Positions 5,276-22,785 of a stretch of 64,000 bases of DNA are shown piece after piece. Source of the stretch: Promethearchaeota archaeon (GTDB taxonomy: Archaea; Asgardarchaeota; Lokiarchaeia; Sigyniarchaeales; SOKP01). The notes under the pieces were generated by a model. That model did no database searches, was not told the origin of the DNA, and saw nothing but the letters and a program-made list of their open reading frames with translations. A program made the position numbers and the translations under genes. The first letter of the stretch is position 1; every line of letters starts with the position of its first letter. The stretch lies in the NCBI GenBank assembly GCA_048939015.1, contig JBHLPW010000003.1, positions 67,628-131,627 of the forward strand. Reading direction: 5' to 3'.

Positions 5276-5403
5276 ACCAGAATTTTAATTTTCTCTTTTT
5301 CTTACTTTTGACTTTAACTTTTCTTATTTTTTTAATAAATATATGTAATATAATTACATGAACAATGAAATTGTATTCTTCTTACTTTTTGATAATTAAA
5401 TCT

Positions 5404-6609: not shown

Positions 6610-7557
6610 CTAGTCTACGTAAATAATAATATCATCATCTTCTTCCTTTTTAGATTCATCAATAGCTTTTTTGTTATTATGTTGTTTTTTTAGGATCGTT
6701 CTATTTACCATTTCTTCTATAATCTTATAAATTTCATTCCTTGCTTTTTTTGATATTGCTGAAAGCCCATACGTTTTTACTCTAAAAAATTCTTCCACTT
6801 TTTCAGGAACAAGTGCTGTATTAAAATCCTGGAAGTTAGCAATAATATAAAAATCTGCTTTTTTTATCTTTTGTTCTAACAATGAAAACATCCTATGTGT
6901 ATTACGTAGATTCATTCCTCCTGAATTTGTTACAAAACAAATAATATCAACAGAATCTAAAAGTTGCCTATAATTATTTTGATTATCAACTAGATCTTGT
7001 AAGTCCATCTCTCTTATTACAATCTCCTGGATTTCCTCTAGATTTGGTAGTTTAATTGACTTCTCTACGATGTCATTGGTATCTTCATCAATTTTTATTA
7101 CCGTTTCTCCAGGAAATAAATTGAAGATGGTCGATTTCCCAGTACCCGGAACACCAACTAATAAAATCTTAGGAGGTATAAAAATGTGAGTATTAATATA
7201 TTCATCAAAACTTTCAAACTTTCCAACATCACAATCCCAATTTTTAATTTCCTGTCGATATCTCTTGAAAAATTCAAATTTAAGCGATTCTAATTTATAT
7301 CTTACTTCCTCTTCAGGATCATCAATATTGGTTACTATAATAAAAATCCAATTCTTCTCATAATCAAAGGTGAATACAATATTAAAATTTCTAAAATTTA
7401 ATGATCGTACCTCTCCCCCACCGATCTCGCTCGCTATATTGCTAATTGCTGTGAAAAAGCCACTTATAAAATCTTCATCAATAGACTCTTCGCTAAAAAA
7501 TGATTTTGAATAGCATAGAACTCCACTCGCTTTTATTATGAATATTTTTTTTATCAT
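6610..7557 (-). CDS. Longin-domain / small GTPase fusion, paralog 3
   Basis: MIKKIFIIKASGVLCYSKSF...FISGFFTAIS; GVPGTGKST; ANFQD; LSAI; acidic tail EEDDDIIIYVD; ATG 7557 aligns with paralog starts. Confidence 0.85.
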   Translation of the reverse strand: MIKKIFIIKASGVLCYSKSFFSEESIDEDFISGFFTAISNIASEIGGGEVRSLNFRNFNIVFTFDYEKNWIFIIVTNIDDPEEEVRYKLESLKFEFFKRYRQEIKNWDCDVGKFESFDEYINTHIFIPPKILLVGVPGTGKSTIFNLFPGETVIKIDEDTNDIVEKSIKLPNLEEIQEIVIREMDLQDLVDNQNNYRQLLDSVDIICFVTNSGGMNLRNTHRMFSLLEQKIKKADFYIIANFQDFNTALVPEKVEEFFRVKTYGLSAISKKARNEIYKIIEEMVNRTILKKQHNNKKAIDESKKEEDDDIIIYVD

Positions 7558-7600
7558 AGGATTTTTTATTCTTTTTTGCAATAATAGATTGTATGATTAT

Positions 7601-9484
7601 TTAATATGATTCCTCTATCATCTCAAGGAATATATCAGCTATATTAAGCCATTTATTTTTATGTTCAGGCTCTAATGTTTCTTTTTTTGTCAATTCTTTC
7701 CCTTTTTTGAGATATTTAATAGATTGATCCTTGTTTCCTAAATGTTTATAGCAAATTCCTAATTTTATATAAGTTTGATTAATATACCATTCTTCAGGAC
7801 TTAATTCAACTACTTTTTGAAATTGCACTAGTGCTTCATGGTAGTTTTGGTTATACATTAGAATCTCCCCATATGTATCTAGATAAGTAGGATTATTTGG
7901 AGAGTTCAAAATAAGATTCTCAATGATTTCTAACGATTCATCTTTTTGATCCATATACTGCAACCAGTAAGCTTTGTACATAAGTAAATCTTTATCATCT
8001 GGGTAATCTTGAAGTAATCCTTCTATAATTTCAAATCCCGCTTTAAGTTTGTTTATTCGTTTTAGAATTGATGCTTTCTTAATTTTGATTTCTCTCCTAT
8101 TCTCTGGAAATTTGTCAACCATTTCATCTAAATCCCTTGAAGCTTCATTATAACGACCTAAATAAATCAAAATTTTAATTTTAGAATAATAATTCTCCAT
8201 ATTCTGTGAATTTTTACTAATTTTCTCATTTATGTTTAAAAGTTCTTGTTCATATTGATTTTCAGATTCTTGAAATAACTCAGCCATATTTTGCCAAATA
8301 ATTCCCTCTAATTTATCCCCAATCCCTCTTAATTCAGGCTCTGTTTCAATTTTATATGCTAAATAATTAATATAATCAGGTAAAAAATTATACAGGGATT
8401 CTTCTAATCCTTTAATAAATAATTTATCTAAGCATTCTTCTAGAATTTTATCAATAATTAACTGTTTATTTATTGATTTTGAAAAGAGTCTATTAAAGTA
8501 AGTCAACATAGTAACATGTTCTTCTGTTATCGCTCTAAGCATCATTTCAATTTTTTCATTTTCTTGAAAATAATAAATCTGGTCTGATGAAACTTTTAAT
8601 TGAAAAAATTTAATCGGATATAATCCATTTTCTACAATTTGATCAATGTAATAAGTAAGGGTATTCTCTTTAATGCCATATTTCTTTGAAAATGTCTCAG
8701 GTGATTCATAGTTAGGAAATTCATTAGGGTGATTTACTGAAAGAAATAGTATAATTTTGTTAAAATCATCCTCATTTTTTAGCAATGATTCCACTCTGGT
8801 ATAATCTAATTTTACAATATTGTTTAGAAGCCTAAATTGTAAGAATTCATCCTCAATCTTATTTTTTTTAAAAAAATCAATAGTCTTGTTAGTGATTTCC
8901 TCAACTCGCTTACTTTCTCTTTCTAAAATTGATTGTCTGTCTAAATTGTAATTTTGTAGCATATAGGCATACTCGACTTTCCCTTTTCTTGTGATTTTAT
9001 ATTCCTTGCTCTCATCATCCTTTTCTACTAAACCTTCTCTTTTTAATTGTTTTAAGTATTTTGATAGTGAGGTTTGATTGATTGCAACAGGCTCTTCGAG
9101 AAAATCAGACCACTTACAGTAGCTATTGTTATAGAGCATCCATAATATCCAATGATCATAATTCCTACCTTTCTTTAGGATAATATTTGGCGGAAAGTTT
9201 ACTTTTCTTATTTCTACTGCATTTTGAGACAATTTATTGAATCGAATTATCCCATCTGGGGTAATTTTATAATGCCCTATATCAGATTTAACTATTAAAC
9301 CTTGATTTCTTAGAACTCTTAAATATCTTGACAATGTAGAAGTTGGAATTTTAAGGTTAACAAAATCAGACCACTCACTATCATCATTATTACTCAACAT
9401 CCAGAGAATAATATGCTCATAATTTTTCTTATCCATTGCTGGAGGGTTGAGAATCTCTTGAGGAGGGTAAATTTTCACTGGCAT
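7601..9484 (-). CDS. Tandem winged-helix + TPR protein (putative transcription regulator), paralog A
   Basis: Two wHTH repeats (IPTSTLSRYLRVLRNQGLI..YKITPDG; INQTSLSKYLKQLKREGLV..YKITRKG) and C-terminal TPRs (YLDTYGEIL..YHEALVQFQKVVELSP). Confidence 0.8.
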   Translation of the reverse strand: MPVKIYPPQEILNPPAMDKKNYEHIILWMLSNNDDSEWSDFVNLKIPTSTLSRYLRVLRNQGLIVKSDIGHYKITPDGIIRFNKLSQNAVEIRKVNFPPNIILKKGRNYDHWILWMLYNNSYCKWSDFLEEPVAINQTSLSKYLKQLKREGLVEKDDESKEYKITRKGKVEYAYMLQNYNLDRQSILERESKRVEEITNKTIDFFKKNKIEDEFLQFRLLNNIVKLDYTRVESLLKNEDDFNKIILFLSVNHPNEFPNYESPETFSKKYGIKENTLTYYIDQIVENGLYPIKFFQLKVSSDQIYYFQENEKIEMMLRAITEEHVTMLTYFNRLFSKSINKQLIIDKILEECLDKLFIKGLEESLYNFLPDYINYLAYKIETEPELRGIGDKLEGIIWQNMAELFQESENQYEQELLNINEKISKNSQNMENYYSKIKILIYLGRYNEASRDLDEMVDKFPENRREIKIKKASILKRINKLKAGFEIIEGLLQDYPDDKDLLMYKAYWLQYMDQKDESLEIIENLILNSPNNPTYLDTYGEILMYNQNYHEALVQFQKVVELSPEEWYINQTYIKLGICYKHLGNKDQSIKYLKKGKELTKKETLEPEHKNKWLNIADIFLEMIEESY

Positions 9485-9555
9485 TTTAGAAGAATTGATA
9501 TAAAAACTACTCTATTTAAAAATAGTGTTAGGTTCTATATATATTTATTTTGTAG

Positions 9556-9610
9556 AACTACCATAGTAATTCGGGACTACCATGAAGGTACCTTTAAAAA
9601 AACTATAAAT
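9556..9610 (+). promoter_or_regulatory. Operator-like palindrome plus BRE/TATA, copy 1
   Basis: CATAGTAATTCGGGACTACCATG (9562-9584), then 19 nt, then TATAAAT (9604-9610). Confidence 0.7.
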
Positions 9611-9721
9611 GGTTGTCATAAATACTCTTTTATGACCATTTCCATATTGTTCACTCTTAAAATTACTAATATTAATTTGGGTGTAGAATTAACAATGAGT
9701 AATAATAAGAGGGACGAAACA

Positions 9722-9767
9722 AGAATTTAGAATAGGAGGAATATATTTAATCCTCCATTCTAATTCT
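9722..9767 (+). other. Short copy of the conserved GGAGGA/TCCTCC hairpin
   Basis: AGAATTTAGAATAGGAGGA-10nt-TCCTCCATTCTAATTCT. Confidence 0.55.
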
Positions 9768-9797
9768 AAATTTTAAGTAAAAAGGATAGATGAAAAA

Positions 9798-11135
9798 ATG
9801 AATAATAAAAAAACCTTTTTTATGGCATTAATATTGATCTTGTGTTTTAGCTTCCTGACACAAGGATTAACTGTCTCTAATGAAAAAAATGATATAAACA
9901 ATAAGAGTACTTTACGTCTTTCGTCTACAAGCAATTCCGTTAAGTTTTCGTGGTATTGTATATGGGATCTTGCTCAGGAGGGAGGTGAGGGAGTGGCAGT
10001 AGATTCGTCAGGGAATATATATCTTGTAGGATGGACATATAACGCCACATTAACTGATATGGTTCTGGTGAAATATGACAGTTCTGGGGTACAGCAATGG
10101 AATCGCACATGGGGTGGAAGTATTTCTGATGGAGGTGAAGATGTAGCAGTAGATTCTTCTGACAACGTGTATCTTGCCGGAAAAACAAGTAGTTTCGGAG
10201 AAGGAGATTATGACATGGTTCTGGTGAAATACGACAGTTCTGGTGTGCAGCAATGGAATCGCACATGGGGTGGAAGTATTAGGGATGATGGCTATGGAGT
10301 GGCATTTGATTCGTCTGATAACGTGTATCTTGTGGGAAGTACATTTAGTTACGGGGAGGGATATGATGATATAGTTTTGGTGAAATACAACAGTTCTGGT
10401 GTGCAGCAATGGAATCGCACATGGGGCGGAAGTGGTTCTGATGGAGGCAGGGGAGTGGCAGTAGATTCGTCTGACAACGTTTATCTTTCGGGAGAAACAA
10501 AAAATTTCGGGGAGGGAAATTATGATATGGTTCTGGTGAAGTACGACAGTTCTGGAGTGCAGCAATGGAATCGCACATGGGGCGGAAGTAGTTCTGATGA
10601 AGGCACGGGAGTGGCAGTAGATTCGTCTGACAACTTATATCTTTCTGGATCGACAGAAAGTTTCGGGGAGGGAAATTATGATATAGTTCTGGTGAAATAC
10701 GATGGTACTGGAGTGCAGCAATGGAATCGCACATGGGGCGGGATTATTAGGGATGAGTCCTATGGAGTGGCAGTAGATTCAGCTAACAGAATATATCTTG
10801 CGGGACGTACAAATAGTTTCGGGGAGGGATCTGATGATATAGTCTTGGTGAAATACGACAGTTCTGGTATGCAGCAAGGGGATCAAACATGGGGCGGGGT
10901 TAGTGGTGATGGAGGTACGGGAGTGGCAATAGATTCGTCTAACAACGTGTATCTTTCTGGATATACAGAAAGTTACGGAGGACCAGGTTCATCTATGGCT
11001 TTAGTGAAATATGTACAAGAACAAGGAATTTCTAGTTATAACTTATTTCTGTTTATTATTATAATTGGTGCGATAACAGTGATAACAGCAATATCCCTTA
11101 AAAAAAAATATTATAAGAAATTTCTTCTTGAATAG
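9798..11135 (+). CDS. Secreted SBBP-type beta-propeller surface protein with Loki-CTERM-like anchor
   Basis: Signal peptide; about 7 repeats GVAVDSSDNVYL.G....FGEG.YD.VLVKYDSSGVQQWNRTWGG; C-terminal ISSYNLFLFII-TM-KKK. Confidence 0.88.
   Translation: MNNKKTFFMALILILCFSFLTQGLTVSNEKNDINNKSTLRLSSTSNSVKFSWYCIWDLAQEGGEGVAVDSSGNIYLVGWTYNATLTDMVLVKYDSSGVQQWNRTWGGSISDGGEDVAVDSSDNVYLAGKTSSFGEGDYDMVLVKYDSSGVQQWNRTWGGSIRDDGYGVAFDSSDNVYLVGSTFSYGEGYDDIVLVKYNSSGVQQWNRTWGGSGSDGGRGVAVDSSDNVYLSGETKNFGEGNYDMVLVKYDSSGVQQWNRTWGGSSSDEGTGVAVDSSDNLYLSGSTESFGEGNYDIVLVKYDGTGVQQWNRTWGGIIRDESYGVAVDSANRIYLAGRTNSFGEGSDDIVLVKYDSSGMQQGDQTWGGVSGDGGTGVAIDSSNNVYLSGYTESYGGPGSSMALVKYVQEQGISSYNLFLFIIIIGAITVITAISLKKKYYKKFLLE
9985..11010 (+). 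repeat. About 153-bp intragenic tandem repeat (about 7 units)
   Basis: Near-identical CAGCAATGGAATCGCACATGGGG and GGAGTGGCAGTAGATTC recur at about 153-nt period; GC-richer than flanks. Confidence 0.9.
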
Positions 11136-11171
11136 GGTTGTTACTAAGTCATAAATACCCTATATTTTTTT
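11133..11171 (+). terminator. Hairpin plus T-tract terminator
   Basis: TAGGGT...ACCCTA followed by a T-run right after the stop. Confidence 0.5.
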
Positions 11172-11300
11172 ATAAAAATTGAACAAAACTAAATTTAAGT
11201 TAAGAATTTTTAATATCTGGGTCATTAATTCATACCTCTGAATGACCTTTTAATCCTTTATTCTATACATAATTTTTTTTTTTTCTAATTTTATTGAATT

Positions 11301-11355
11301 TACTTTCTTGATAATTCGGGATTACCATGGGACTTCGCTATTAAAAACTATAAAT
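11301..11355 (+). promoter_or_regulatory. Operator-like palindrome plus BRE/TATA, copy 2
   Basis: CTTGATAATTCGGGATTACCATG (11307-11329), then 19 nt, then TATAAAT (11349-11355); same spacing as copy 1. Confidence 0.7.
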
Positions 11356-11426
11356 AGAAACGAGATCTCAGATATTATTGATCATCAATTCGATGATTAC
11401 CAAATTTAGAAAAAAGATGAAAAAAA

Positions 11427-12200
11427 ATGAGTAAAACTTCTAAAGTACTAACATTAGTGACGCTAGGAATCCTCATTTTAAGCTTTACTTCTGCAGTATT
11501 AGCAAGTGAAGGTAATATTACTAAGAGGCCACTAGAGGATTGGTTAGAACCAAATTATACCGCTTTCCCTTGGGGCGAAGAAAATTGGGCTTTTTCGGAC
11601 TTTGTTAGCCCTTATTCTTGGTTAGTGTGTAAGATGGGATTTCCTTGGCCTGCTGATAATGAAACATGTGAGTGGAGTCCATTTGTAAATGATTTAATAT
11701 ATGAGAATAGTTTAGTAGTAGGCGATACTATAATTAGCGGAGATATCAAAGAAAGAGCATTAGATGATGGAACAGCTTTAATAACTTTACATTTAGATGT
11801 AAAGAATGCCCCTATGACGGTCTATGATTACTTTGATTTAATTTTCTATTGTTTTGATTGGGCACCCAAACCTCAAGCAGTATTAGGTGATGGAGAGGAT
11901 GGTTATATAGATTATAAAGTAGACTTCAAATTTATTATCCCTGAGCCTGGAGCAGATTTACCCGATGCATTTTCTATGTGGGATAATTATATCTCATGTA
12001 ATATTCATGGCATTGGTTATGGAACCTTGACAGAACGTGCAGTTGAGCTTGGTTTTGCTGAAACCGCTGGCGCAACAGGAATGGTAAACCTTCATGAAAT
12101 TTGCCTTTTTAAACCCGATTTTGAAGAGGGTCACCCTAAATATGATCCTGGTTACGGTGATTTATGGCCTGTCGAAACAATTGAAATTCATGAAATATAA
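11427..12200 (+). CDS. Secreted acidic protein of unknown function
   Basis: Signal peptide MSKTSKVLTLVTLGILILSFTSAVLA; W/P/D-rich mature region. Confidence 0.8.
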   Translation: MSKTSKVLTLVTLGILILSFTSAVLASEGNITKRPLEDWLEPNYTAFPWGEENWAFSDFVSPYSWLVCKMGFPWPADNETCEWSPFVNDLIYENSLVVGDTIISGDIKERALDDGTALITLHLDVKNAPMTVYDYFDLIFYCFDWAPKPQAVLGDGEDGYIDYKVDFKFIIPEPGADLPDAFSMWDNYISCNIHGIGYGTLTERAVELGFAETAGATGMVNLHEICLFKPDFEEGHPKYDPGYGDLWPVETIEIHEI

Positions 12201-12242
12201 AATAAATGGAGAGAAATTGAGGGTTGAATATCTAAATTATAA

Positions 12243-12333
12243 TATAGAATAAGGAGGAAAAAGTTTAGATAAATGGCTTCTCGAATAACCACACCTAAAC
12301 TGCAACTCCTCCAAATCTATATATCTTTTTTTT
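12243..12333 (+). ncRNA. Conserved structured element (long hairpin plus U-tract), copy B
   Basis: TAGA..GGAGGA..AGTTTAG / CTAAACT..TCCTCC..TCTA, then T8; homolog at 20092-20181. Confidence 0.55.
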
Positions 12334-12443
12334 ATTTATAAATTTGATTGGTTTATTTAATGGTATTGGAATATTAACAATCTTTTTATAAGTAAAAATC
12401 TAAACTTATTTTAAACATAATCCTATATGATTCATCTTTTTTC

Positions 12444-12992
12444 ATGGGAAATTCTGTAAAAAAATTTAGATTTAAAATTACTGTCATAGGGGATGGTAGA
12501 GTAGGAAAGACATCCCTTATTAAGAAATTCACTTTAGGTACTTTTAAAACAGATTATGTTGAAACAATAGGTGCTCAATTCTCTAAATATGAAAAAGAAA
12601 TTCACGGAGATAATATTCGATTACTATTTTGGGACATTGCAGGACAAAGAGAGTTTGATTTTCTTCGGCCTTCTTTCTACAAGGAAAGTAACGCAGCTGT
12701 CATAGTTTATAGTCTTGAACAAAATGAGCTTGGAGATGGAAGCTTTAGACACATAAACGATTGGGATAACGAAATTAAGAAATTTTGCGGAGATATCCCG
12801 ATTGTGGTATTTGCAAACAAAGCTGATTTAATAAATGAGAACGATCTAAATTTATCTAAAATTGAAAAAATTGTAAGAGAACATAATTTTCTCGGATATT
12901 ATATTACTTCGGCAAAAACAGGACAAGGTGTTTATAAAGCTTTTGATGATATTATTGAAAATGTATATTATAGTCTTGTAGAAACTAGTTAG
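12444..12992 (+). CDS. Rab-like small GTPase
   Basis: GDGRVGKTS, TIG, WDIAGQ, NKAD, TSAK; no C-terminal Cys. Confidence 0.93.
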   Translation: MGNSVKKFRFKITVIGDGRVGKTSLIKKFTLGTFKTDYVETIGAQFSKYEKEIHGDNIRLLFWDIAGQREFDFLRPSFYKESNAAVIVYSLEQNELGDGSFRHINDWDNEIKKFCGDIPIVVFANKADLINENDLNLSKIEKIVREHNFLGYYITSAKTGQGVYKAFDDIIENVYYSLVETS

Positions 12993-13041
12993 CCATAATA
13001 AATAAAACATAAATAAAAATTAAAAAGAAATAGGAGTAAAT

Positions 13042-13278
13042 TTAGGCAACATTTACAACTTGTTTTACTTCTGGGACAAATTGTTTAATTGCTCTTTCTA
13101 CACCGTAAGTTAAGGTTTGTTGAGCGTGCATACAACCAGCACAATGGCCTAGCAATCGTACTTTTACTATTCCATCATCTTCGACACTAATAAGTTCGAT
13201 ATCGCCGCCATCCATCTGTAATTGTGGTCTTATTTTCTCGATAACTTGTACAACTTTATCTTTATCCATCAAATTCAC
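13042..13278 (-). CDS. NifU C-terminal / NfuA-type Fe-S carrier
   Basis: IRPQLQMDGGDIEL...VRLLGHCAGC...GVER. Confidence 0.9.
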   Translation of the reverse strand: MNLMDKDKVVQVIEKIRPQLQMDGGDIELISVEDDGIVKVRLLGHCAGCMHAQQTLTYGVERAIKQFVPEVKQVVNVA

Positions 13279-13464
13279 TTAACAAAAATAGTTTATATTC
13301 TTTAATTTACAAAAGGCAAATAACCTTTTAAAGGATTCTTTTTATATTTTATTAATATTTTTCTAATGTAGTTATTTAAATCACGCTTTTTGGGGTTAGA
13401 TCTTTTAAGTAAAAAGATTATTGAGTTACCTCATATTTTTAACTCTAGAATAATCTGAAAAGAT

Positions 13465-14193
13465 TTGAAGATGGAAATTGAAAAAATATGGAATGAGAGT
13501 AGCTGGACTAAACAGGCTCGTGATATTATAACAAATATTAGAAAATTTCCTGAAGATTCTAAGGTTATTTTGATCCTTAGACATTCTCAGAGGAATGAAC
13601 CTAAAAAGTTCAGTGTAAACGCAGACTTGAGTTTGACTCCTCAAGGTCGAAGAATTGCTTATCTTTTTGGTGAAAAACTACCAAAGAATAGATCAATTCG
13701 TGTGTTTCACAGTGATGCTGAGAGATGTAAAGACACAGCTAATGAGATATTTGATGGTTTCAAAACATTGGGTGGTGATGCCATTTTGAAGGGTTTTTTC
13801 AAACCTTTATCTCACATAGGTATTGCTGTAAAATCCTTTTTCCAAGAAAATGAAAAATATGAGATATTAGACCTTTTTTATCGATGGGTTGCTGGAGTTT
13901 ATTCTCCTACACTTTGGACTCCATTAATCACATATAGTCAAGAAGCTGGATTAATGATGTTGGAAAAAATCGATAATGCTCCAGAGGAAACATTAGATAT
14001 TCATGTTACGCATGATTTACATCTTATGGCTTTAAGATTAGGATGGTTTGGATTACATCCAGATGGAAGATGGGTTGATTACCTTGGAGGATTTGCGTTT
14101 TCGCTTTTAGAGGATCAAATAAAATTATTTGAGTATGGTGAATTTAAACCAGTAGAATATCCCTATTGGTGGAAAAACTCTAAAACAACCTAA
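13465..14193 (+). CDS. Histidine phosphatase superfamily protein
   Basis: LILRHS, LTPQG, S..RC..TA, VTHD motifs. Confidence 0.8.
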   Translation: MKMEIEKIWNESSWTKQARDIITNIRKFPEDSKVILILRHSQRNEPKKFSVNADLSLTPQGRRIAYLFGEKLPKNRSIRVFHSDAERCKDTANEIFDGFKTLGGDAILKGFFKPLSHIGIAVKSFFQENEKYEILDLFYRWVAGVYSPTLWTPLITYSQEAGLMMLEKIDNAPEETLDIHVTHDLHLMALRLGWFGLHPDGRWVDYLGGFAFSLLEDQIKLFEYGEFKPVEYPYWWKNSKTT

Positions 14194-14215
14194 TTTTAAT
14201 AAAATTATCAATAAG

Positions 14216-14605
14216 TTGAAGTTAAAAATGGATGCAAAAGAATTTATAAACCAATTGAATTATGTTCAAGAATTAATGCAAGAAGAGAATTATAAGGAAG
14301 CAATTATCATACTTGAAAAACTTAAAGAATTAGACAAAAATACAGATTTTGATTATAATCTCACTCATAGATTATACCAATTAGATTCAAATACTCGCTC
14401 ACTCTATAATCAAGAAATTATCTTGAAATTATTAACTCAACTTTCCACTAAAACTAAAAAAGTTAGTTTCGATGACTTAAAGCAAAAACTAATGGAATTA
14501 AATAATTTAGATCTAAGTGTTGATATTTTAAGAAGGGAAATTGAAATACTCATATTAAGAAATCTTTTAGCATGTAGAATTGATGGAGAATTTTTAATAT
14601 TTTGA
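14216..14605 (+). CDS. Small helical-hairpin + winged-helix protein, PCI-like
   Basis: TPR-like ENYKEAIIILEKL, then KVSFDDLKQKL...EIEILILRNLLACRIDGEFLIF; ATG 14228 is an alternative start. Confidence 0.55.
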   Translation: MKLKMDAKEFINQLNYVQELMQEENYKEAIIILEKLKELDKNTDFDYNLTHRLYQLDSNTRSLYNQEIILKLLTQLSTKTKKVSFDDLKQKLMELNNLDLSVDILRREIEILILRNLLACRIDGEFLIF

Positions 14606-14624
14606 AAAAAAATTCTGCTTTAAT

Positions 14625-16535
14625 TTAAGGAGATAATAGAATCTTTTGTTCCTCTATCTCAGCAAGAAAAAGGTCTACAATTGCTAACCACTTGTTTTTT
14701 GATTCAATATCGCTAGTAATTTTGTTTGTTAATTCTTTTCCTTTCCTGAGATTTTCAAGCGCTAAATCAATATTATCAAGTGCAGAATAGCAAATTCCAA
14801 TTTTGATATAGGTCTGGTAGATAAACCACTTATTTGGATCAATTTCTATGGTTTTTTTAAACTCTTTTATGGCTTTTTCATATTCTTTAAAGGTTATTAA
14901 GATTTCTCCATAGGTATCATGATAAATTCCTTTTTTTGGTTCGCTTTCGGTGAGGCTCCGAAGGATTTTCAATGCTTCTTGTCTCTTACCTAAATATGAT
15001 AACCAATAAGCTTTATAATTATAAAGAGAATTATCATCAGGAAATTTTTCGAGTAATTCTTCAATAATTTCTAATCCCGCCTCCAAATTTTTATCTTTTT
15101 TAAGAGTATATGCCTTTTTTATCTTAATATCAATCTCCTTTTCTGGAAATAATGCTCTCATATTCTCTAACACTGTTAGAACCTCGTTGTATTGATTAAA
15201 ATAGATTAGAATTCTAATCTTTGAATTATATAATTCATAATTATTAGGGTTTCTACTGATTTCTTTATCAATTTCTTTAATTTTTTCTTCGTACTGAGAT
15301 TTAAAATTTTCAATATTCTGCAATTCCAAAATGTCTGTCATGTTCTGCCAAATTATGCCTTCTAACTTATCATAAGTATCTTTTAATTCTTTTTTTATCT
15401 CCATTTTATATGCTAAATATTTGATATATCTTGGTAAAAATTCACTCAATGATTCCTTGAAATGTTTATTGAATAAGGTTTCACAAATTTCGTCAAGAAT
15501 ATTCTCTATAATAAAGTCAAAACTCCCAGATCTCCCAAATTTCTCTAAATATTTGTTTGTTGCAATATGTTCTTCAGTTATAGCTCGAAGGATCTTCTCT
15601 AATTTTTCATCCGAATGAAAATAGTAATGTTTATTTGGAGAAATATCTAATTTAAAAAACTTTAAGTCATATAAGTCGCTTTCTACGATCTCATTTACCC
15701 AAAAATCAAGGATTCTCTTTTTGATTTCATAAAATCTCGAAAATTCCTCAAAAGATAAATAGTCAGGATAAAAATCGGGATGATTTATCGATAAAAAAAG
15801 TAAGATTTTATGAAAATCCTCTTCATTTTTTAAAATTGCTTTAACTTTTGAATAATCTAATTTTAACACATTATTCAAAAATCTAAATTTGACCTGATCA
15901 TCTGAAATACTATATTTATTAAAAAACAGTGAAGTCTTTGTAGTAATTTCATCAATCCTTTTCTTTTCTTCCTCCAATATTGTTTGTCTATCCAAATCAT
16001 ATTGCTGTAAAATTCTCGAATATTCAGATTTGCCCGATTGAGTAATTATATATCTTTTATTTTCTTTGATGATAAAACCCTTTTGAGTCAATAAATCTAG
16101 ACTTTTTGATAAAGAGGATTGATTTATAGATAGTGGTTCTTCAAGAAAGTCAGTTCTTTTGCAATAACCATTATTATAAACCATCCATAGAATCCAATGA
16201 GGATAATTTCTACCTCTTTTTAAGATAATATTAGGTGGATAATTCAGTTTACGTTTTATTTTTCTTTCTTTTGATAACTCATGAAATCTTCTTCTTCCTT
16301 CTGGAGTTATCCTGTATTTTCCTCTAGAAAACTTTTCTATAAATCCGTTGAGGATTAATTTTCCTAAATGACGTGATATTGTAGATATTGGGATTTCCAC
16401 TGGCTTTTGCTCAAAATTAGACCATTCACAACTTTCATTATTAGCTAATATCCAAAGGATTATCTGTTCGTAATTCCTTCTTTGCAGTTCTGAAGGGTTA
16501 AGAACCTCCTTAGATGGATAATTAAATTTTCCCAT
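14625..16535 (-). CDS. Tandem winged-helix + TPR protein (putative transcription regulator), paralog B
   Basis: Collinear with 7601-9484 over its full length (NYE.IILW, GRNY.HWILWM, KLEGIIWQNM, DTYGEIL, YQTYIK.GICY). Confidence 0.8.
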   Translation of the reverse strand: MGKFNYPSKEVLNPSELQRRNYEQIILWILANNESCEWSNFEQKPVEIPISTISRHLGKLILNGFIEKFSRGKYRITPEGRRRFHELSKERKIKRKLNYPPNIILKRGRNYPHWILWMVYNNGYCKRTDFLEEPLSINQSSLSKSLDLLTQKGFIIKENKRYIITQSGKSEYSRILQQYDLDRQTILEEEKKRIDEITTKTSLFFNKYSISDDQVKFRFLNNVLKLDYSKVKAILKNEEDFHKILLFLSINHPDFYPDYLSFEEFSRFYEIKKRILDFWVNEIVESDLYDLKFFKLDISPNKHYYFHSDEKLEKILRAITEEHIATNKYLEKFGRSGSFDFIIENILDEICETLFNKHFKESLSEFLPRYIKYLAYKMEIKKELKDTYDKLEGIIWQNMTDILELQNIENFKSQYEEKIKEIDKEISRNPNNYELYNSKIRILIYFNQYNEVLTVLENMRALFPEKEIDIKIKKAYTLKKDKNLEAGLEIIEELLEKFPDDNSLYNYKAYWLSYLGKRQEALKILRSLTESEPKKGIYHDTYGEILITFKEYEKAIKEFKKTIEIDPNKWFIYQTYIKIGICYSALDNIDLALENLRKGKELTNKITSDIESKNKWLAIVDLFLAEIEEQKILLSP

Positions 16536-16589
16536 TATCTATGAGAGTAAATCGATTTATTCAATAAGTATAAATTGGGAACATTTCTA

Positions 16590-16662
16590 TTTATATCTTA
16601 TTTTCAAAACTTCCACACTTTCTCGGAATTTTCAAGGAATTGTCGAAAGTGGGACTATATAT
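16590..16662 (+). promoter_or_regulatory. Operator plus TATA element, copy 3 (divergent promoter)
   Basis: 62/73 ungapped identity to 19345-19417; AACTTCCA...TCGGAATTTTCAAG...ACTATATAT. Confidence 0.72.
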
Positions 16663-16750
16663 GGATGGATAGGTGTACAATTAATTGAACATCATTTTGA
16701 TGATAAAATTTGAATTAAAACAAAAAAAAAAGAATAAAGTTGATAAAAAA

Positions 16751-17137
16751 ATGACTGAACTTAAAAAAATTACAAAAATTGTGTTGATTTGGTATGTGAT
16801 CTGCGGATCACTCTTTTCAATTATGTACTTGGTTTTGACTGAGATGCAGTTGTCAATGTGGATCTACAACGACCCTGTTACTTTTTGGAGTATGGGAATC
16901 ACTATGCTAGTACTTACTATAGCTACGGTTATAGCATTTTTCAGAGAATGGGAACAGATCGAATTGTATTGGATTATTATGAACTTTTGGATGGTCGGAT
17001 ATATCATTATGAATATTTTAATCATTACAACTTTACCTTTAACTGCGATTGCACTAATGAATGAGGTTATGAATCTCTTTTTTCTAAGTTTGAATGTAGC
17101 TTTAGGAATCATTTGCTATATAATCCAAAGGAGATAA
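16751..17137 (+). CDS. Four-helix membrane protein
   Basis: Four hydrophobic segments; ATG 16751 more plausible than TTG 16685. Confidence 0.7.
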   Translation: MTELKKITKIVLIWYVICGSLFSIMYLVLTEMQLSMWIYNDPVTFWSMGITMLVLTIATVIAFFREWEQIELYWIIMNFWMVGYIIMNILIITTLPLTAIALMNEVMNLFFLSLNVALGIICYIIQRR

Positions 17138-17343
17138 GTTAAATTGTATTAAACAAATGAAATTGTCGTGTTTATGAAAAAAAGAGGCTAAACGACATAA
17201 TTTAAAAAATTTTTAATTAATTTTTTTTTAAATCCTTATTTAGAGAAAAGGTTATATCTTTTTTCAATGGAAATAAGCACTAGATTTAAAATGATGATTA
17301 GCTTATTATATTCATAGGTTTATAATCCAAATCAAGTAAATAA

Positions 17344-19293
17344 ATGTCCTATCTACAGTTAAATCAATTAACAAGGGCAGAAGAACTTTTTGATGCTTGT
17401 AAGATTGATGAAGCTCTTGAATTATTAAATGATCAAAGCTTATTTGAGGGGCTTGATCTTGAGCAGAAAAGTTATTTTCAGTTTCTTAAGGGCTTGATTC
17501 TTTTATATCAACATAATATCGCAGAAACTATTAAGGTGGGTGAACAAATGCTAAAAAAAGGTCAAACATATAATGATAATGTCTACTCATTTGATGGATT
17601 ATTTTTTATTATTAATGGATTGATTCAGACTAATAAATTTGATGATGCACAAGAAAAAGTTGAAGAAGCTGAAGATTTCTTAAAACTTATTTCTACTAAG
17701 CCTAAGGATATTATAATTCTAAGAGAGGTTCGTTTAGGTTTATTAAAAGCATTGTTGAACTTTGAGTTGGGCAATTCAGATATTGCAGAAAAGTACTTAA
17801 AAAAACCCTTAGAATCTCAAAAAGAACTTGGTAATACATTGGAACTTGTTTGGGCGAATGCAATAATGGCAGAAATTATGATGTGGGTAAAAAATAGAAT
17901 AGATCCTGCTATGGAATACGCCAAGAGAGTACTATCAATCGCTAAGGAAATTAAATTTAACCATTTCTGGATTGTTATCGGTCATGCTTTTATGGGTATA
18001 ATGTATCATTGGATTGGGGAATTAGAGACTAGTTTAAAACATTATATAAAAACGACAGAAATACTTAAAAAATTTAAAAGCGATTTTTGGATGGCAAGGC
18101 AGCTAAATAATACAGGACTCTTGTATGCTGATCTTGGCGATTATGAAATGGCTTTAAAATGTCTGGAGGAAGCTTTAATATTATATGAGCGAGATCCCCT
18201 CCTAACTATAGAAAGTCCTATTTCTAGTATAATGACTGTAGCTTTTAAGAAGGGAGATACTGAACTTGCTCAAAAATATTTTCAACGCTTGGAAAATATG
18301 TATAAACAAGCACCAACTAGTCATATCGAATTTCTATATAAATATAATAAAGCTATAATGTTGAAGAGCAGTTCTCGAATACGAGATAAAGCAAAAGCTG
18401 AAAAATTATTTAAACAAGTCATTGGAACAAAAAAAGAAAGTATACATATTGACGTAATAATTATCTCATGTATTCATCTTTGCGATTTACTTCTTAGCGA
18501 ATATCGCATAAGTTATAATAGCGAAGTTCTTGATGAGATTAATCAAAATGTTACTCAAATAATAGCTTTTGCTGAAAAAGCACATGCCTATCCAACTTTC
18601 TGCGAAACTTTCATATTACAAGCTAAATTAGCTTTATTAAATTTTGATATAAAAGCTGCCCGACGATATTTAACTCAAGCTCAGAAGATTGCAGAATCAT
18701 ATGAATTAAAAAAATTAGCAATGAAAATCTCAAATGAACATGATAACTTACTAAAAGAATTACGTAAATGGGAAATCCTGAGTGAATCAAATGCTAGTCT
18801 GGCGGAGCGTATTGAATTAGCCCGATTGGATGATCAGATGACTACGATGCTAAAAAAGCGATCAATAGAAGTACCAAAGATATCAAAAGAAGACCCTGTT
18901 ATGATATTAATCTTAACGGAGGGAGGTAATTTGTTATTCTCTAAGAAATTTATAGAGGATTTTTCATTTGAAGATGATATCTTAGGAGGATTTCTAACTA
19001 GTGTAAATTACATAATTAGTGAGGTATTTTCTGAAGGTCTTGATAGGGCGGTTTTCGGTCAATACACACTGCTAATGATCCCACTTCAACCATTTTTGGT
19101 ATGTTATATCTTTAAAGGGGCATCATATTTTGCTCAACATAAGATAAATACCTTTGTTACGTCATTAAAGAATGATAATATCACTTGGCAATCTCTACAG
19201 AAATTTTTCCAAAAGAGTAAATCAGTTCAATTAAATGATATCCCCTCTCTTGAATCTAAGATAATGGAGATTTTTGTTGAGAAAAAAGATTAG
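17344..19293 (+). CDS. TPR-solenoid protein with C-terminal longin-like domain
   Basis: TPRs (ARQLNNTGLLYADLGDYEMALKCLEEAL); C-terminal ILILTEGGNLLFSKKF...ILGGFLTSV resembles the longin N-termini at 4.4-7.6 kb. Confidence 0.8.
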   Translation: MSYLQLNQLTRAEELFDACKIDEALELLNDQSLFEGLDLEQKSYFQFLKGLILLYQHNIAETIKVGEQMLKKGQTYNDNVYSFDGLFFIINGLIQTNKFDDAQEKVEEAEDFLKLISTKPKDIIILREVRLGLLKALLNFELGNSDIAEKYLKKPLESQKELGNTLELVWANAIMAEIMMWVKNRIDPAMEYAKRVLSIAKEIKFNHFWIVIGHAFMGIMYHWIGELETSLKHYIKTTEILKKFKSDFWMARQLNNTGLLYADLGDYEMALKCLEEALILYERDPLLTIESPISSIMTVAFKKGDTELAQKYFQRLENMYKQAPTSHIEFLYKYNKAIMLKSSSRIRDKAKAEKLFKQVIGTKKESIHIDVIIISCIHLCDLLLSEYRISYNSEVLDEINQNVTQIIAFAEKAHAYPTFCETFILQAKLALLNFDIKAARRYLTQAQKIAESYELKKLAMKISNEHDNLLKELRKWEILSESNASLAERIELARLDDQMTTMLKKRSIEVPKISKEDPVMILILTEGGNLLFSKKFIEDFSFEDDILGGFLTSVNYIISEVFSEGLDRAVFGQYTLLMIPLQPFLVCYIFKGASYFAQHKINTFVTSLKNDNITWQSLQKFFQKSKSVQLNDIPSLESKIMEIFVEKKD

Positions 19294-19344
19294 TGAAAGT
19301 TAGTAGGTTATTATCTTCTAAAATTGACATTTACGCTCAGATAG

Positions 19345-19417
19345 TTTATATCTATTTTTCACAACTTCCACTTATTTTCGGAATTTTCAAAGAATTGTCG
19401 AAAGTAGAACTATAAAT
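19345..19417 (+). promoter_or_regulatory. Operator plus TATA element, copy 4
   Basis: Direct repeat of 16590-16662; ends ACTATAAAT, upstream of a secreted-protein gene. Confidence 0.72.
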
Positions 19418-19484
19418 CATAGATATATATCCTTTTCAGTGAACATCATAAAGATGATAAAACAGAAATTTAAAAAAAAAAGAG

Positions 19485-20033
19485 TTGATCAAAATTAGTA
19501 GATCGAAATTAGTACCAAAAGTCTTAGTAGGTTTAACTGTTTTGTTAACAATCTTTGGTTTAATAACAACTGCTAATGCTGGTATCCCTCCATTTATTTG
19601 GGAATACTCCCAATACAATTATATCTGGGGTGTAGATCAAACGCTTCCGCAAGATGAACCATGTTTTTGGGCAATTGGTATAGCATGTAGTGAAGAAGAA
19701 ATTGAAACAGGATATTATCCTAAACCTCCATTTAAACATAAACTGTATATTGATGGAGAGGAAATAAATCTGCGTAGATTTATCTTTACGGACAAGGATG
19801 GGAGCATGTTTGGGATTCCAGGGCAAAAATGGTATTTTTTCTACCAAGTTTTTGAAGCAAGTTATTTTACTTTAGGCGAGTATGACGTGACAGAGGAATT
19901 TTGGGTTCATCACCCCTATACGGGTAGTGAAACTTATGGATGGAGAATCTTTGTAAATTATGAGGGGCCTGAATATAAGTATGGCCCAGTAGGTCTACCA
20001 CATACTTTAACGTATACTTTAACTTTTGTTTAA
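19485..20033 (+). CDS. Secreted protein of unknown function
   Basis: Signal peptide ...KVLVGLTVLLTIFGLITTANA; aromatic-rich, likely beta-rich mature part. Confidence 0.75.
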   Translation: MIKISRSKLVPKVLVGLTVLLTIFGLITTANAGIPPFIWEYSQYNYIWGVDQTLPQDEPCFWAIGIACSEEEIETGYYPKPPFKHKLYIDGEEINLRRFIFTDKDGSMFGIPGQKWYFFYQVFEASYFTLGEYDVTEEFWVHHPYTGSETYGWRIFVNYEGPEYKYGPVGLPHTLTYTLTFV

Positions 20034-20091
20034 CACTAATAATTTATTATTTAGAGGGTGAATAAGGGAAATTTTAATTTTAAAACATGGA

Positions 20092-20181
20092 ATAGAAGTG
20101 GAGGAGTTGGGTTAGCTAAACTACTTCCTGACGAAGCTACTACTAAACCAATAATCCTCCATTCTATACTTCTTTTTTTTT
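20092..20181 (+). ncRNA. Conserved structured element (long hairpin plus U-tract), copy C
   Basis: TAGAAGTGGAGGA-GTTGGGTTAG / CTAAACCAA-TAATCCTCCATTCTA, then T9. Confidence 0.55.
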
Positions 20182-20277
20182 CTATTTAAACCTTAATAAT
20201 TCACCAAAATTTTATATTAAACTAAACCTAATTTTTCATTAAAAAAAATCATATTTTCATTAAGACTTAGAAATCTA

Positions 20278-20820
20278 ATGAATAATTCTGAGGAATTTCG
20301 ATTTAAAATAGTCGTAGTAGGAGATGGAGCAGTAGGTAAAACATCCTTAATTAAGAAATTCACGAAAGGGACGTTCGAAAAAGATTATGTAAAAACTATC
20401 GGTGCTCAGTTTTCCAAATATAACAAGAAATTTAATGGAGATGTGGTTAGATTATTATTCTGGGATATAGCAGGTCAAGATGATTTCAATTTTCTACATC
20501 ATTTATTTTATAAAGAGGCTAAAGCAGCAATCATCGTATATAGTCTTGAAGAAAATGAACTTGGTCAAAATAGTTTTACACATATAAAGAACTGGAATGA
20601 AGTACTAGAAAAAAATTGTGGACCTATTCCTGTTGTTTTATTTGCTAATAAAGTTGATTTAGTAGATGAAAATAGTTTAGATACAACAGAAATTCAACAA
20701 TTTGTTAATGAACGTAATTTTTTAACTTACTTCTTCACTTCAGCAAAAACAGGACAAGGGGTTGTTGAAGCATTTAACGCAATTATAGAGCGGTTATATT
20801 TTAAATTTAAAACCCTTTAA
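20278..20820 (+). CDS. Rab-like small GTPase, paralog of 12444
   Basis: GDGAVGKTS, WDIAGQ, NKVD, TSAK; highly similar to 12444-12992. Confidence 0.93.
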   Translation: MNNSEEFRFKIVVVGDGAVGKTSLIKKFTKGTFEKDYVKTIGAQFSKYNKKFNGDVVRLLFWDIAGQDDFNFLHHLFYKEAKAAIIVYSLEENELGQNSFTHIKNWNEVLEKNCGPIPVVLFANKVDLVDENSLDTTEIQQFVNERNFLTYFFTSAKTGQGVVEAFNAIIERLYFKFKTL

Positions 20821-20923
20821 TTAAAATTATACTTTCATTTCTTTTTCCCTTAATTGATATAAAAATTATTGGCTTTTATAAGGCTATTTTAAAATTAACG
20901 GTTAAAAGGATGTTAAATTTAGA

Positions 20924-21517
20924 TTGATTATTGACCATTCTGCGAAGAGTATTAGTATTAAAATTGTCTATTTTGGTCCCGCTATGAGCGGTAAGACAAC
21001 ATCAATTAAAGCTTTATTTTCTGAATTTGGGAAAGAAGATGAAGTATGTAGTATTGAAAGTACTTTAGAAAGAACTTTATTTTTTGATTACGGTACTGTT
21101 ACGTTTCAAAATCAAGAATGGAAATTGAAAATTCATATTTATACTACTACTGGACAAGATTTCTATTTTATTACTAGACCCGTCACTTTGCGAGCAGTAG
21201 ATGGAGTTGTTTTTGTTATCGACTCTCAGGAAGATGTTTATGAAAGAAATCTGATCTCTTGGCAGGAATTAATCGCCTATTTTAATGAATCCTTAAGTAA
21301 ATTACCCATTATCATTGCATTCAATAAACAAGATTTAGAAGAAAAATTTAACTCCATAGATTTTTTGAAGGAAATTATGTATCATAAATACAAGAATATA
21401 GATACCAGATACACAAGCGCATTAAATGGAGAAGGAATCTTAGATTGTTTCGAAGATATTCTTAGATTGATTTTAAGAAAATATTATAATCAAAAATTTG
21501 TTTCAGTAATTAATTGA
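20924..21517 (+). CDS. MglA-type small GTPase
   Basis: KIVYFGPAMSGKTT, ERTLFFDY, TTTGQ, DGVVFVIDSQ, NKQD, SA. Confidence 0.85.
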   Translation: MIIDHSAKSISIKIVYFGPAMSGKTTSIKALFSEFGKEDEVCSIESTLERTLFFDYGTVTFQNQEWKLKIHIYTTTGQDFYFITRPVTLRAVDGVVFVIDSQEDVYERNLISWQELIAYFNESLSKLPIIIAFNKQDLEEKFNSIDFLKEIMYHKYKNIDTRYTSALNGEGILDCFEDILRLILRKYYNQKFVSVIN

Positions 21518-21564
21518 AATAAGTTTCCTGAATTAAACCGATAACAAAAGGATTTATTTTTATT

Positions 21565-22785
21565 TTAAAAAAAACTAACTTCTGAGACAGGAGATTGAAT
21601 TCGGATTCTTTGTTGACTATTATCTTCTAAGATTGAAATGAGTGCTGTAACATTTTGCTTTGTTTCATAAATGATCTCTTTCTCTTCACCCTTTTTCCAG
21701 GTATTAAAGCCTGTCAAATGTGAAGCAGTTTCAAATAATCCTTCTTGCAATCCTGAAACTAGAACAGTTACTCCTTCTAAATCATTTTTAGATATATTTT
21801 TTATATGTAATCGATACATATCAATATCAGAATCAATCGCTTCTACTTTGTAAGTTTTCTGAAATTTTGATATTCCGTCAAATAAGGACGATGCAGCAGT
21901 AGGAGTTTCTGAAAATAGATCTACACCAACCTTTTCCTCAGAAATAGGACCTGTAGAAATAGTTATTGGGATTTCAAGTTTAATAGGTTCCAAACCGTAT
22001 TCAGGTTTTTTCTTTCCTATAATTAAAAGACTCCATTTTGTATAAGCTCCATACCTGAAGCCAAATTGCTCCTTTTCTGAAGGGGACCATAAATAATTAT
22101 GACTGGGTTCAGCTACTTCTGGAACTTTTAGAAGCATAAAATCTTTTTCAAAGTTTTGTGTCCGAATATCACCTGCAATTGCAGGAGGTAATTCTTCAAC
22201 TTTACGACAATTTTGGCCATATGCTTCGCAATAACAAACCAAATTAGAGTTTTGTAGCAACCTAATTTCCAAACTTTTAAGCTCCTCCGAGGTGTAGCCA
22301 ATCTTTATAGCTTCGCCTGGTTTAAAAATATCTTTTGTTAAGAGGATATTTAACCCTGAAATTGAAAATGAAATTGGTTTTGGAGATTTCGCTTGAAGTC
22401 CAGAATTTCGTGCTTTAATTTCAATGTCATGTATTTTATTAATCATTAAATCATCTTCTGGATTAATCGGATTTGGTTGTCTTAGATTCAATTTTAGAAT
22501 ATAGTTTAAATTTCTGTTCTTTATGGTTGGTACAATATTACTTTTAATCAAAAGGGATTTTTCTCGTAGATATTCACCTGCTTCAAAATTGCCCTTACTA
22601 AATATTTCTTCTTTTGATATTTGAAGTTCTTTAGCACAAGGGGGATTAGTAATCAATTGAATTCCACTCCAATGAATTTCAGCATCTTCCTCAAATTTGA
22701 ATTTAGATCGTGTGATTAATTTATCTCCTATATAAACTACTCCGTTATTTAAGTCGGTTAACTCTAATTTTATCAAGCGAAACAT
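21565..22785 (-). CDS. Arrestin/Vps26-fold protein with extra C-terminal Ig-like domain
   Basis: VVYIGDKL, LNYILKLNLRQP and ILLTKDIFKPGEAIKI match arrestin N- and C-domain signatures. Confidence 0.6.
   Translation of the reverse strand: MFRLIKLELTDLNNGVVYIGDKLITRSKFKFEEDAEIHWSGIQLITNPPCAKELQISKEEIFSKGNFEAGEYLREKSLLIKSNIVPTIKNRNLNYILKLNLRQPNPINPEDDLMINKIHDIEIKARNSGLQAKSPKPISFSISGLNILLTKDIFKPGEAIKIGYTSEELKSLEIRLLQNSNLVCYCEAYGQNCRKVEELPPAIAGDIRTQNFEKDFMLLKVPEVAEPSHNYLWSPSEKEQFGFRYGAYTKWSLLIIGKKKPEYGLEPIKLEIPITISTGPISEEKVGVDLFSETPTAASSLFDGISKFQKTYKVEAIDSDIDMYRLHIKNISKNDLEGVTVLVSGLQEGLFETASHLTGFNTWKKGEEKEIIYETKQNVTALISILEDNSQQRIRIQSPVSEVSFF

Follow-up and report, generated by a model that had tools for sequence, protein, structure and literature searches.

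Two Cassettes with a Winged-Helix-TPR Regulator, Clade-Specific Operators and a Linked Rab-like GTPase in a Lokiarchaeial Genome: Candidate Members of a Duplicated Module

Two Related Cassettes in One Window

A window of 64,000 nucleotides from a member of the Promethearchaeota/Lokiarchaeia (assembly GCA_048939015.1, contig JBHLPW010000003.1, positions 67,628-131,627) was analyzed, and two cassettes were found in it, each with a large regulator carrying winged helix-turn-helix (wHTH) and tetratricopeptide repeat (TPR) domains, operators followed by TATA boxes, cargo genes and a Rab-like GTPase, with a TPR-longin protein (tprlong) in the second cassette. These cassettes appear to be members of a lineage-specific, repeatedly duplicated module that combines a local regulon with a cognate GTPase/longin pair acting in the same pathway, a reading to which we give slightly more than even credence. 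The assembly (4.86 Mb, 29.8% GC, 125 contigs) is labelled G000 in the genome comparison and the contig of the window is C32.

The original prediction, a first reading of the same DNA, had described both cassettes, and the parts that it named are present at or near the positions it gave. The regulators are homologous between the cassettes (52% identity across 627 aa), as are the promoters, with their paired operators, and the GTPases (63% identity), while the genes between regulator and Rab are unrelated and the cargo genes show no similarity detectable by sequence comparison, as that prediction had also held. Database homologs of the module proteins come from Promethearchaeota, Lokiarchaeota and other Asgard metagenome-assembled genomes and carry no annotation beyond 'hypothetical' or 'tetratricopeptide repeat protein', and no published description of the module was found in the literature on Asgard winged helix, TPR, longin or guanine nucleotide exchange factor (GEF) proteins.

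Linkage and Co-Inheritance of the Module Genes

Six close regulator paralogs were detected in the genome by tblastn, two on C32, two on C120 and one each on C59 and C21. Each of the six adjoins one or two of seven close Rab paralogs, and five of the six modules also hold a ~650-aa TPR-longin paralog, with locus B of C120 being syntenic with cassette 2 (regulator, two tm4 genes, sec2, two TPR proteins and Rab). The close tprlong paralogs lie 78-2177 bp from a Rab gene, compared with a genome-wide mean spacing of 72 kb for small GTPase genes; of the five distant tprlong paralogs, only the one on C59 has a small GTPase gene in its neighbourhood, the Rab of that module at 2.2 kb.

All 24 genomes of the genus that were searched for the regulator contain it, with 2-12 matches each, as does one of the 16 searched in other families of the order, while the Rab subfamily was present in all 40 genomes of the genus searched for it. 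Two coordinate lists were compared by hand with a limit of 10 kb, which placed a subfamily Rab within this distance of 49 of the 65 full-length regulator matches in 25 genomes, and many of the remaining 16 matches sit at contig ends. The Rab and regulator trees split alike, with classes A, B and the C21 module on one side and classes C, D and the C59 module on the other, which means that regulator and Rab have been together since the early duplications. The neighbourhood analysis therefore bears out the conserved regulator-Rab linkage that the original prediction had looked for; the congruence of the trees shows stable linkage and says nothing on contact between the proteins.

Block duplication alone would likewise give congruent trees, and some regulators and some Rabs stand apart, as would be seen if the regulator/cargo and Rab/TPR-longin genes were independent systems that were merely duplicated and moved as blocks. 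We regard such linkage without function as unlikely, because the adjacency has outlived many duplications, rearrangements (divergent, convergent and tandem) and cargo swaps in 25 genomes, and would be hard to keep without selection.

Regulators and Operator Classes

Regulator 1 (7601-9484, minus strand; 627 aa, class C, placed in clade C of the tree) contains two wHTH domains, a third wHTH-like domain and a TPR domain, while Regulator 2 (14625-16535, minus strand; 636 aa) belongs to class A. Both match wHTH families at the N-terminus (E about 1e-8) and TPR families at the C-terminus in Pfam, the matches of Regulator 1 being HTH_45, HTH_5 and TPR. The AlphaFold2 (AF2) model of Regulator 2 shows wHTH domains at residues 22-88 and 111-178, a wHTH-like domain at 213-307 and TPRs at 408-634, and its orthologs in six other species share 76-80% protein identity. 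The first winged helix is the most class-specific domain of the regulators, with an identity of 0.80 within classes and 0.56 between them, and the second is more uniform (0.82 within, 0.68 between). By their Pfam matches, their AF2 wHTH folds and the clade-specific operators that are conserved across species at their own loci, the regulators look like archaeal wHTH transcription factors. The family also includes longer forms of 830-1050 aa with extra C-terminal or inserted parts (e.g., G014:C92, G003:C3 and G006:C1:3251194) and ~450-aa forms without a TPR domain, some of these forms also adjoining subfamily Rabs.

All four cargo promoters of the window lie on the plus strand. In cassette 1, operator 1a with its TATA box spans 9556-9610 (core TCGGGACT at 9571-9578, TATA CTATAAAT at 9603-9610) and operator 1b spans 11301-11355 (core TCGGGATT at 11316-11323, TATA CTATAAAT at 11348-11355). 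In cassette 2, operator 2a spans 16588-16662 (core 16623-16650, TATA CTATATAT at 16655-16662) and operator 2b spans 19343-19417 (core 19378-19405, TATA CTATAAAT at 19410-19417). The core of operator 2a reads GGAATT-N5-GGAATT within an imperfect dyad and is common to the tm4 promoter and the divergent promoter of Regulator 2, and operator 1a is homologous to the class C operators of two other genomes (G014 and G024). The two blocks of cassette 2 (16590-16662 and 19345-19417) share 85% identity over 73 nt, and one 17-mer occurs at both 9568-9584 and 11313-11329 in cassette 1. A genome-wide operator scan, which the original prediction had called for, returned three occurrences of the cassette-2 28-mer (at most 4 mismatches) and two of the cassette-1 17-mer (at most 2 mismatches) plus one weak match in 4.86 Mb, a recurrence far beyond chance. 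In all four promoters of the window, and in a fifth copy on C8, the distance from the first base of the TCGGrAyT core to the TATA box is exactly 32 bp. As a marker, the short pattern TYGGrAyT-N24-TATA was discarded, as it is not enriched at this spacing (7 matches, compared with 1-7 at other spacings), and only the strict TCGG form of the core singles out the operators.

Sorting of the sequences upstream of 25 regulators gave four operator classes (A-D) and two singletons, and each class corresponds to one clade of the regulator tree, with supports of 97-100. Each module has a clade-specific block of ~75 bp at one to three promoters. A common plan was observed in all classes, consisting of an upstream TTCCA box, two GGAAyT-type boxes 11 bp apart and the TATA box, a layout that fits tandem winged helices in one chain. 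The class A operator is kept by the Regulator 2 orthologs of the six other species, most of which also keep the TATA box and a palindrome proximal to the transcription start site nearly unchanged, while the first gene downstream varies among species (tm4, a 1631-aa protein or a 217-225-aa protein). Away from a regulator, the operator copies (the one at the sec2 promoter, one more in G007 and the one on C8 before an orphan ABC permease) have in common only the ~75-bp block, which ends at the TATA box. Scans of five further genomes gave one or two matches each to the class A core, all at the regulator locus, and none to the reversed control. The idea that the promoter block is a miniature inverted-repeat transposable element or other mobile element was dropped, since terminal repeats are absent, and duplication of a promoter module fits better.

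Three observations touch on these promoters. The C8 copy (G000:C8 8416-9630 and 9960-11495; L032) is the third cassette-2 operator-TATA copy and stands before an orphan permease of the Dpp/Opp type, whose divergent neighbour is a 511-aa TPR protein matching the SNAP (soluble NSF attachment protein) family of Pfam at E 3e-13. A 37-nt string, TCGGAATT...TTATAAA, occurs twice at C32:26736-27063, beyond the window, at a distance of 291 nt. At promoter 1a, a different leader hairpin, GTCATAAA-N5-TTTATGAC (9615-9645), replaces the TCATCA/GATGAT palindrome of the other promoters and is followed by an 11-codon mini open reading frame (ORF), a region that may be the remnant of a lost cargo gene.

Rab-like GTPases, TPR-Longin Proteins and Their Own Promoters

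Rab-like GTPase 1 (12382-12992, plus strand; ORF 12444-12992) carries its own TATA-like box at 12382-12392 and matches Pfam Ras at E 2e-38, and Rab-like GTPase 2 (rab2; 20210-20820, plus strand; ORF 20278-20820) carries its own promoter TTTTATAT at 20210-20217 and matches the same family at E 6.5e-41. An alignment of 10 module Rabs revealed that the G1-G5 motifs (GDGxVGKT, T40, WDIAGQ, NKxD and TSAK) are invariant and that the catalytic Gln is kept. The C-termini (...FKTL or ...KALSS) contain no Cys and lack the eukaryotic Rab prenylation motif.

The TPR-longin protein of cassette 2 (17280-19293, plus strand; ORF 17344-19293; 649 aa) comprises a TPR solenoid (residues 1-480) and a longin domain (517-625). 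It has a conserved, near-leaderless promoter of its own (TTTATAAT, 17319-17326, ending 18 nt before the ATG), which is conserved across classes and orthologs and carries no operator. The longin assignment draws on several lines of evidence. In the AF2 model, the C-terminal part has the topology bb-a-bbb-aa at a predicted local distance difference test (pLDDT) of 40-70, with E517-525, a short E, H544-564, E568-571, E574-581, E584-591, H594-610 and H612-624, which fits the order b-b-a-b-b-b-a(-a). A search with the domain alone finds 764 cluster representatives, most of them ~650-aa proteins that carry it at the C-terminus, and seven of 35 diverse homologs match PF19036 (Fuz_longin_1, the first longin of FUZ, MON1 and HPS1; best E 3e-4). 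With hhalign, the domain profile aligned to a profile of the proteins of the genome above the PF19036 cut-off with a probability of 96.2% (E 2.3e-9, 58 columns). A profile search of the domain against PDB sequences gave nothing significant. Foldseek with the full-length tprlong model returned generic TPR proteins only, Rap proteins among them, the TPR part dominating.

A complex prediction of two longin domain copies with rab2 scored 0.59, the best of three controls scoring 0.02, with the runs agreeing in at least 82% of contacts and a partner pLDDT of at least 80, which was graded as 'weak support'. Of 80 solved complexes used for calibration, 58 passed the mark, as did 2 of 110 mismatched pairs, and scores of 0.60 or less were given by only seven of these solved complexes and by both passing mismatches; moreover, because longin-GTPase complexes have already been solved, the pass may reflect likeness only. 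The longin domains of MON1 and CCZ1 form the catalytic Rab-GEF core (PMC5216073). Apart from the modules, a regulator-unlinked subfamily Rab on another contig (G000:C14 2894-3442; L044) lies 1.3 kb from a 367-aa protein (4741-5844) with an N-terminal PF19036 match (E 1e-4), and Rab-longin adjacency may thus extend beyond the regulator modules.

Stem-loops separate the cargo genes from Rab. The one of cassette 1 (12242-12335, plus strand) pairs GGAGGA with TCCTCC (stem-loop 12242-12322, -21.1 kcal/mol, z -4.7) and ends in a T-run, and that of cassette 2 (20089-20182, plus strand) ends in a run of T9 (stem-loop 20089-20169, -25.7 kcal/mol, z -3.4). A shorter GGAGGA/TCCTCC stem-loop without a T-run lies between promoter 1a and the propeller gene (9728-9762, plus strand; -14.3 kcal/mol, z -3.2), and the z values of these stem-loops range from -2.3 to -4.7 overall. 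In this genome, they were found in the C32 and C120 modules only, including a homologous copy after sec2B in C120, and a copy in G024 reads GGAAGA/TCTTCC, which is a compensatory change. Further matches to the 3′ arm lie in coding regions and were set aside as chance. No stem-loop was found in other species where TPR-longin directly precedes rab2, and an Rfam scan of 7000-22000 (E up to 1) found nothing. The original prediction had listed the hairpin between the secreted protein and Rab; it is tied to the 3′ ends of cargo genes and not to Rab, with runs of T8-9 following it, and the stem-loops are best read as putative 3′-end or terminator-like elements of the cargo transcripts.

This arrangement bears on whether the regulator switches on cargo and Rab together as one regulon, the Rab output coupling secretion to GTPase signalling, which was the core of the original prediction. 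Rab is co-oriented with and downstream of the cargo in both cassettes, and archaeal termination at T-runs can be leaky. This reading is nonetheless quite improbable. No operator stands before any Rab among the paralogs and the rab2 orthologs, and the stem-loop with its T8-9 run intervenes. Each Rab paralog is preceded by a TATA-like box of its own and a downstream motif (the AAAATTTTATAT...AAAyCTAAT type) that recur across operator classes, and the ~75 nt before the ATG of rab2, with promoter and 5′ untranslated region, are conserved in its orthologs. In the C21 module and in several other genomes, Rab is convergent with the regulator or lies on its other side. The TPR-longin protein, which the same prediction had counted as cargo, belongs to the conserved core as a partner and has a promoter of its own. 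Rab and TPR-longin therefore look like co-inherited partners rather than outputs, and what stands of the proposed undescribed system is the recurrent arrangement of regulator, operator and exchangeable cargo linked to a Rab, without Rab as an output.

After rab2, a second GTPase of the Arf/SRbeta-like type (20924-21517) and a 406-aa protein (21565-22785) were observed, both in conserved synteny in G016 and G024. The GTPase has close paralogs on C116, adjoining a distant regulator-like gene, and on C78.

Cargo Genes and Micro-Peptides

The cargo genes of the window are all on the plus strand. Cassette 1 encodes a beta-propeller (9798-11135) with seven SBBP repeats of 156 nt, a signal peptide and a C-terminal transmembrane (TM) anchor (Pfam SBBP, E 1.4e-32), and the secreted 257-aa protein sec1 (11427-12200), which has a signal peptide, belongs to no family and has no paralog in the genome. 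Cassette 2 encodes tm4 (16751-17137), a membrane protein with four TM segments by hydropathy and with paralogs in C120 locus B, whose ORF was first read as 16685-17137 and probably starts at the ATG at 16751, and the secreted 182-aa protein sec2 (19485-20033), which has a signal peptide and a 57% paralog in C120 locus B. There is no detectable similarity between sec1 and sec2, both with signal peptides, and Pfam scans of sec1, sec2 and tm4 gave nothing. Over the modules, the cargo kinds include secreted, membrane and surface proteins, a stray ABC permease and, in sister loci, micro-peptides.

The micro-peptides are encoded by ORFs of 24-30 aa adjoining class D and C regulators, and they have no signal peptides. 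Arrays of two to four such conserved ORFs were observed between class D regulators and the TPR-longin/Rab genes (G000:C120 7460-8287, L029; L016-L020), each ORF being preceded by a Shine-Dalgarno (SD)-like GAGGTAAAAAAA, and the families ...DFxLNPKKYxFGxKDL* and MKKNAxxGLIxINNxxQN...DLxK* recur across species.

These small genes recall the RRNPP(A) receptors described for Firmicutes and their phages (PlcR, NprR, Rap, PrgX and AimR; PMC9765709, PMC12700828), which share with the module a one-component design, the HTH lying at the N-terminus and the TPR sensor at the C-terminus; in both, a genome has many paralogs, each with its own local target and a small cargo gene beside it, and the fold matches of tprlong to Rap proteins are a further likeness. 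By analogy, the TPR domain would bind a cargo-derived peptide for autoinduction or cell-cell signalling, with Rab and longin as bystanders. The HTH-TPR architecture beside a locally regulated small gene, the conserved ORF arrays with SD-like signals at class D and C loci, the operator copy before a Dpp/Opp-type ABC permease and the resemblance of the regulator TPR domain, in the fold search, to peptide-tail-binding TPRs such as Tom70 and PEX5 would all suit such a system. We find it very doubtful even so. The module has two or three winged helices of the ArsR, MarR, TrmB or HTH_45 type, whereas RRNPP receptors have one XRE-type HTH; the micro-peptides lack a signal sequence and no secreted pro-peptide is evident; the cargo proteins of the window have 180-450 aa; and the permease is an orphan gene with a species-specific operator copy. 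The module also differs in its archaeal host and in its linked small GTPase and longin protein, and a limited look-up of the literature found no archaeal RRNPP system.

Other Elements of the Window

Leader palindromes of the form TCATCA-N-GATGAT were observed on the plus strand at 11382-11399 (~25 nt after the TATA box), 16689-16706 and 19443-19460. Together with an upstream TATA box, this element is nearly confined to the modules (six of eight distinct genome matches); one match, on C87, was rejected because it lies inside a gene. A symmetric double change in one sequence is compatible with an RNA hairpin or a DNA site alike. A 129-aa helical protein (14216-14605, plus strand) is kept beside Regulator 2 orthologs in five other genomes, and its C-terminus (...LLACRIDGEFLIF) resembles, by eye, a PCI-type winged helix. 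The ORF at 9413-9730 was considered spurious.

Discussion

The reading that we favour is a local regulon with a co-inherited GTPase/longin pair. The ~630-aa regulator would read an operator of ~45 bp, abutting the TATA box, through its tandem winged helices, and the difference of the first winged helix and of the operator between clades suggests that each paralog addresses only its own one to three promoters. The regulator probably also acts on its own divergent promoter. From the operator promoters, short transcripts ending in a hairpin would be made, encoding micro-peptides or exchangeable proteins that are secreted or sit in the membrane or at the surface. Rab and TPR-longin would be expressed from their own class-independent promoters, and the co-inheritance of these two with each regulator suggests a shared pathway. 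The MON1/FUZ-type longin domain is most likely the exchange factor or platform of the GTPase, whose state might then be relayed to the TPR domain of the regulator or used for cargo handling.

Since the site lies upstream of the TATA box, activation is somewhat likelier than repression; the 'activator' of the original prediction would follow from this position, as its 'signal-responsive' would from the TPR domain. Archaeal winged-helix factors are known to act from sites upstream of the TFB-recognition element (BRE) and TATA box, examples being Ptr2 and the activation sites of the TrmB family. The module is like these factors in its wHTH domains, its operator directly upstream of the TATA box and its divergent autoregulatory layout, but differs in that a single chain carries tandem wHTH domains, which would read direct repeats spaced by 11 bp, together with a large TPR domain, and in its expanded paralog and operator classes.

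A bolder version of this reading, which we hold to be rather unlikely, is an insulated channel in which TPR-longin loads Rab with GTP on cue, Rab-GTP docks on the TPR domain of the regulator and the private promoters are activated. If true, it would be a prokaryotic small-GTPase pathway that ends directly at a transcription factor, with six or more paralog sets in each genome and no cross-talk among them.

Several points weigh against the favoured reading of a regulon with its GTPase/longin pair. Cassette 1 has no TPR-longin gene, no Rab lies near the Regulator 2 ortholog of G006, a complete genome in which this ortholog is a fused form of 1012 aa, and four of the 11 subfamily Rabs in G000 are unlinked. 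The longin domain of the window itself has no direct Pfam match, with a low pLDDT (40-70). DNA binding by the regulators is argued from Pfam wHTH matches and motif co-variation, the unlinked operator copy on C8 is species-specific, and the co-variation of operator and regulator is partly expected, the operator being inherited beside the regulator gene; the independent evidence for these putative operators is their footprint-like conservation and the distant copies. That the wHTH-TPR protein is instead a protein scaffold, like the ESCRT-II/PCI winged helices, with the promoter blocks read by another factor, is most improbable: protein contacts, too, are made by tandem winged helices in eukaryote-like systems of Asgard archaea, and Foldseek with the full-length regulator model gave generic TPR proteins only, TPR matches dominating without a specific transcription factor fold, but the Pfam matches are to DNA-binding wHTH families (ArsR, MarR, TrmB, PadR, HTH_45 and HTH_34), the recognition-helix motif STLSRHL is conserved among the regulators and clade-specific operators lie directly beside each regulator gene.

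As for the GTPase/longin pair, the module resembles the tri-longin-domain Rab GEFs (Mon1-Ccz1, Fuzzy-Inturned and HPS1-HPS4; PMC5216073, PMC6864590) and MglA/MglB, in that a MON1/FUZ-type longin is encoded beside a Rab-like GTPase, and longin and roadblock dimers are classical platforms for binding small GTPases. The tandem TPR-longin gene pairs of C120 locus B and of G007 recall a heterodimer. Unlike the tri-longin GEFs, the module protein has one longin domain and not three, fused to a 480-aa TPR solenoid.

The module GTPases are also like the Asgard Rab-like GTPases Thor-Rab and those of MK-D1 (PMC10933270) in their Rab/Ras-like core, intact switch motifs and absence of C-terminal prenylation cysteines. 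The structural survey of Asgard GTPases states that, in MK-D1, genes for small GTPases do not as a rule share an operon with those for roadblock, longin or TRAPPC3 proteins, and that partners are hard to predict from genome layout (PMC10933270), whereas the Rab subfamily of the module is a stable neighbour of both a regulator and a longin protein.

In Asgard archaea, Rab/Ras-like GTPases and longin or roadblock proteins number in the dozens. For the matching of GTPases with their partners, the module family offers concrete candidate triads (Rab, TPR-longin and regulator) with defined operators and output genes, and thus testable GTPase-partner pairs in the lineage of the closest archaeal relatives of eukaryotes. 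If the GTPase does not talk to the regulator, the family would still show, in a clean natural case, how paralogous transcription factors and their operators diverge into private channels. If it does, small-GTPase signalling would be wired to gene expression in archaeal relatives of eukaryotes.

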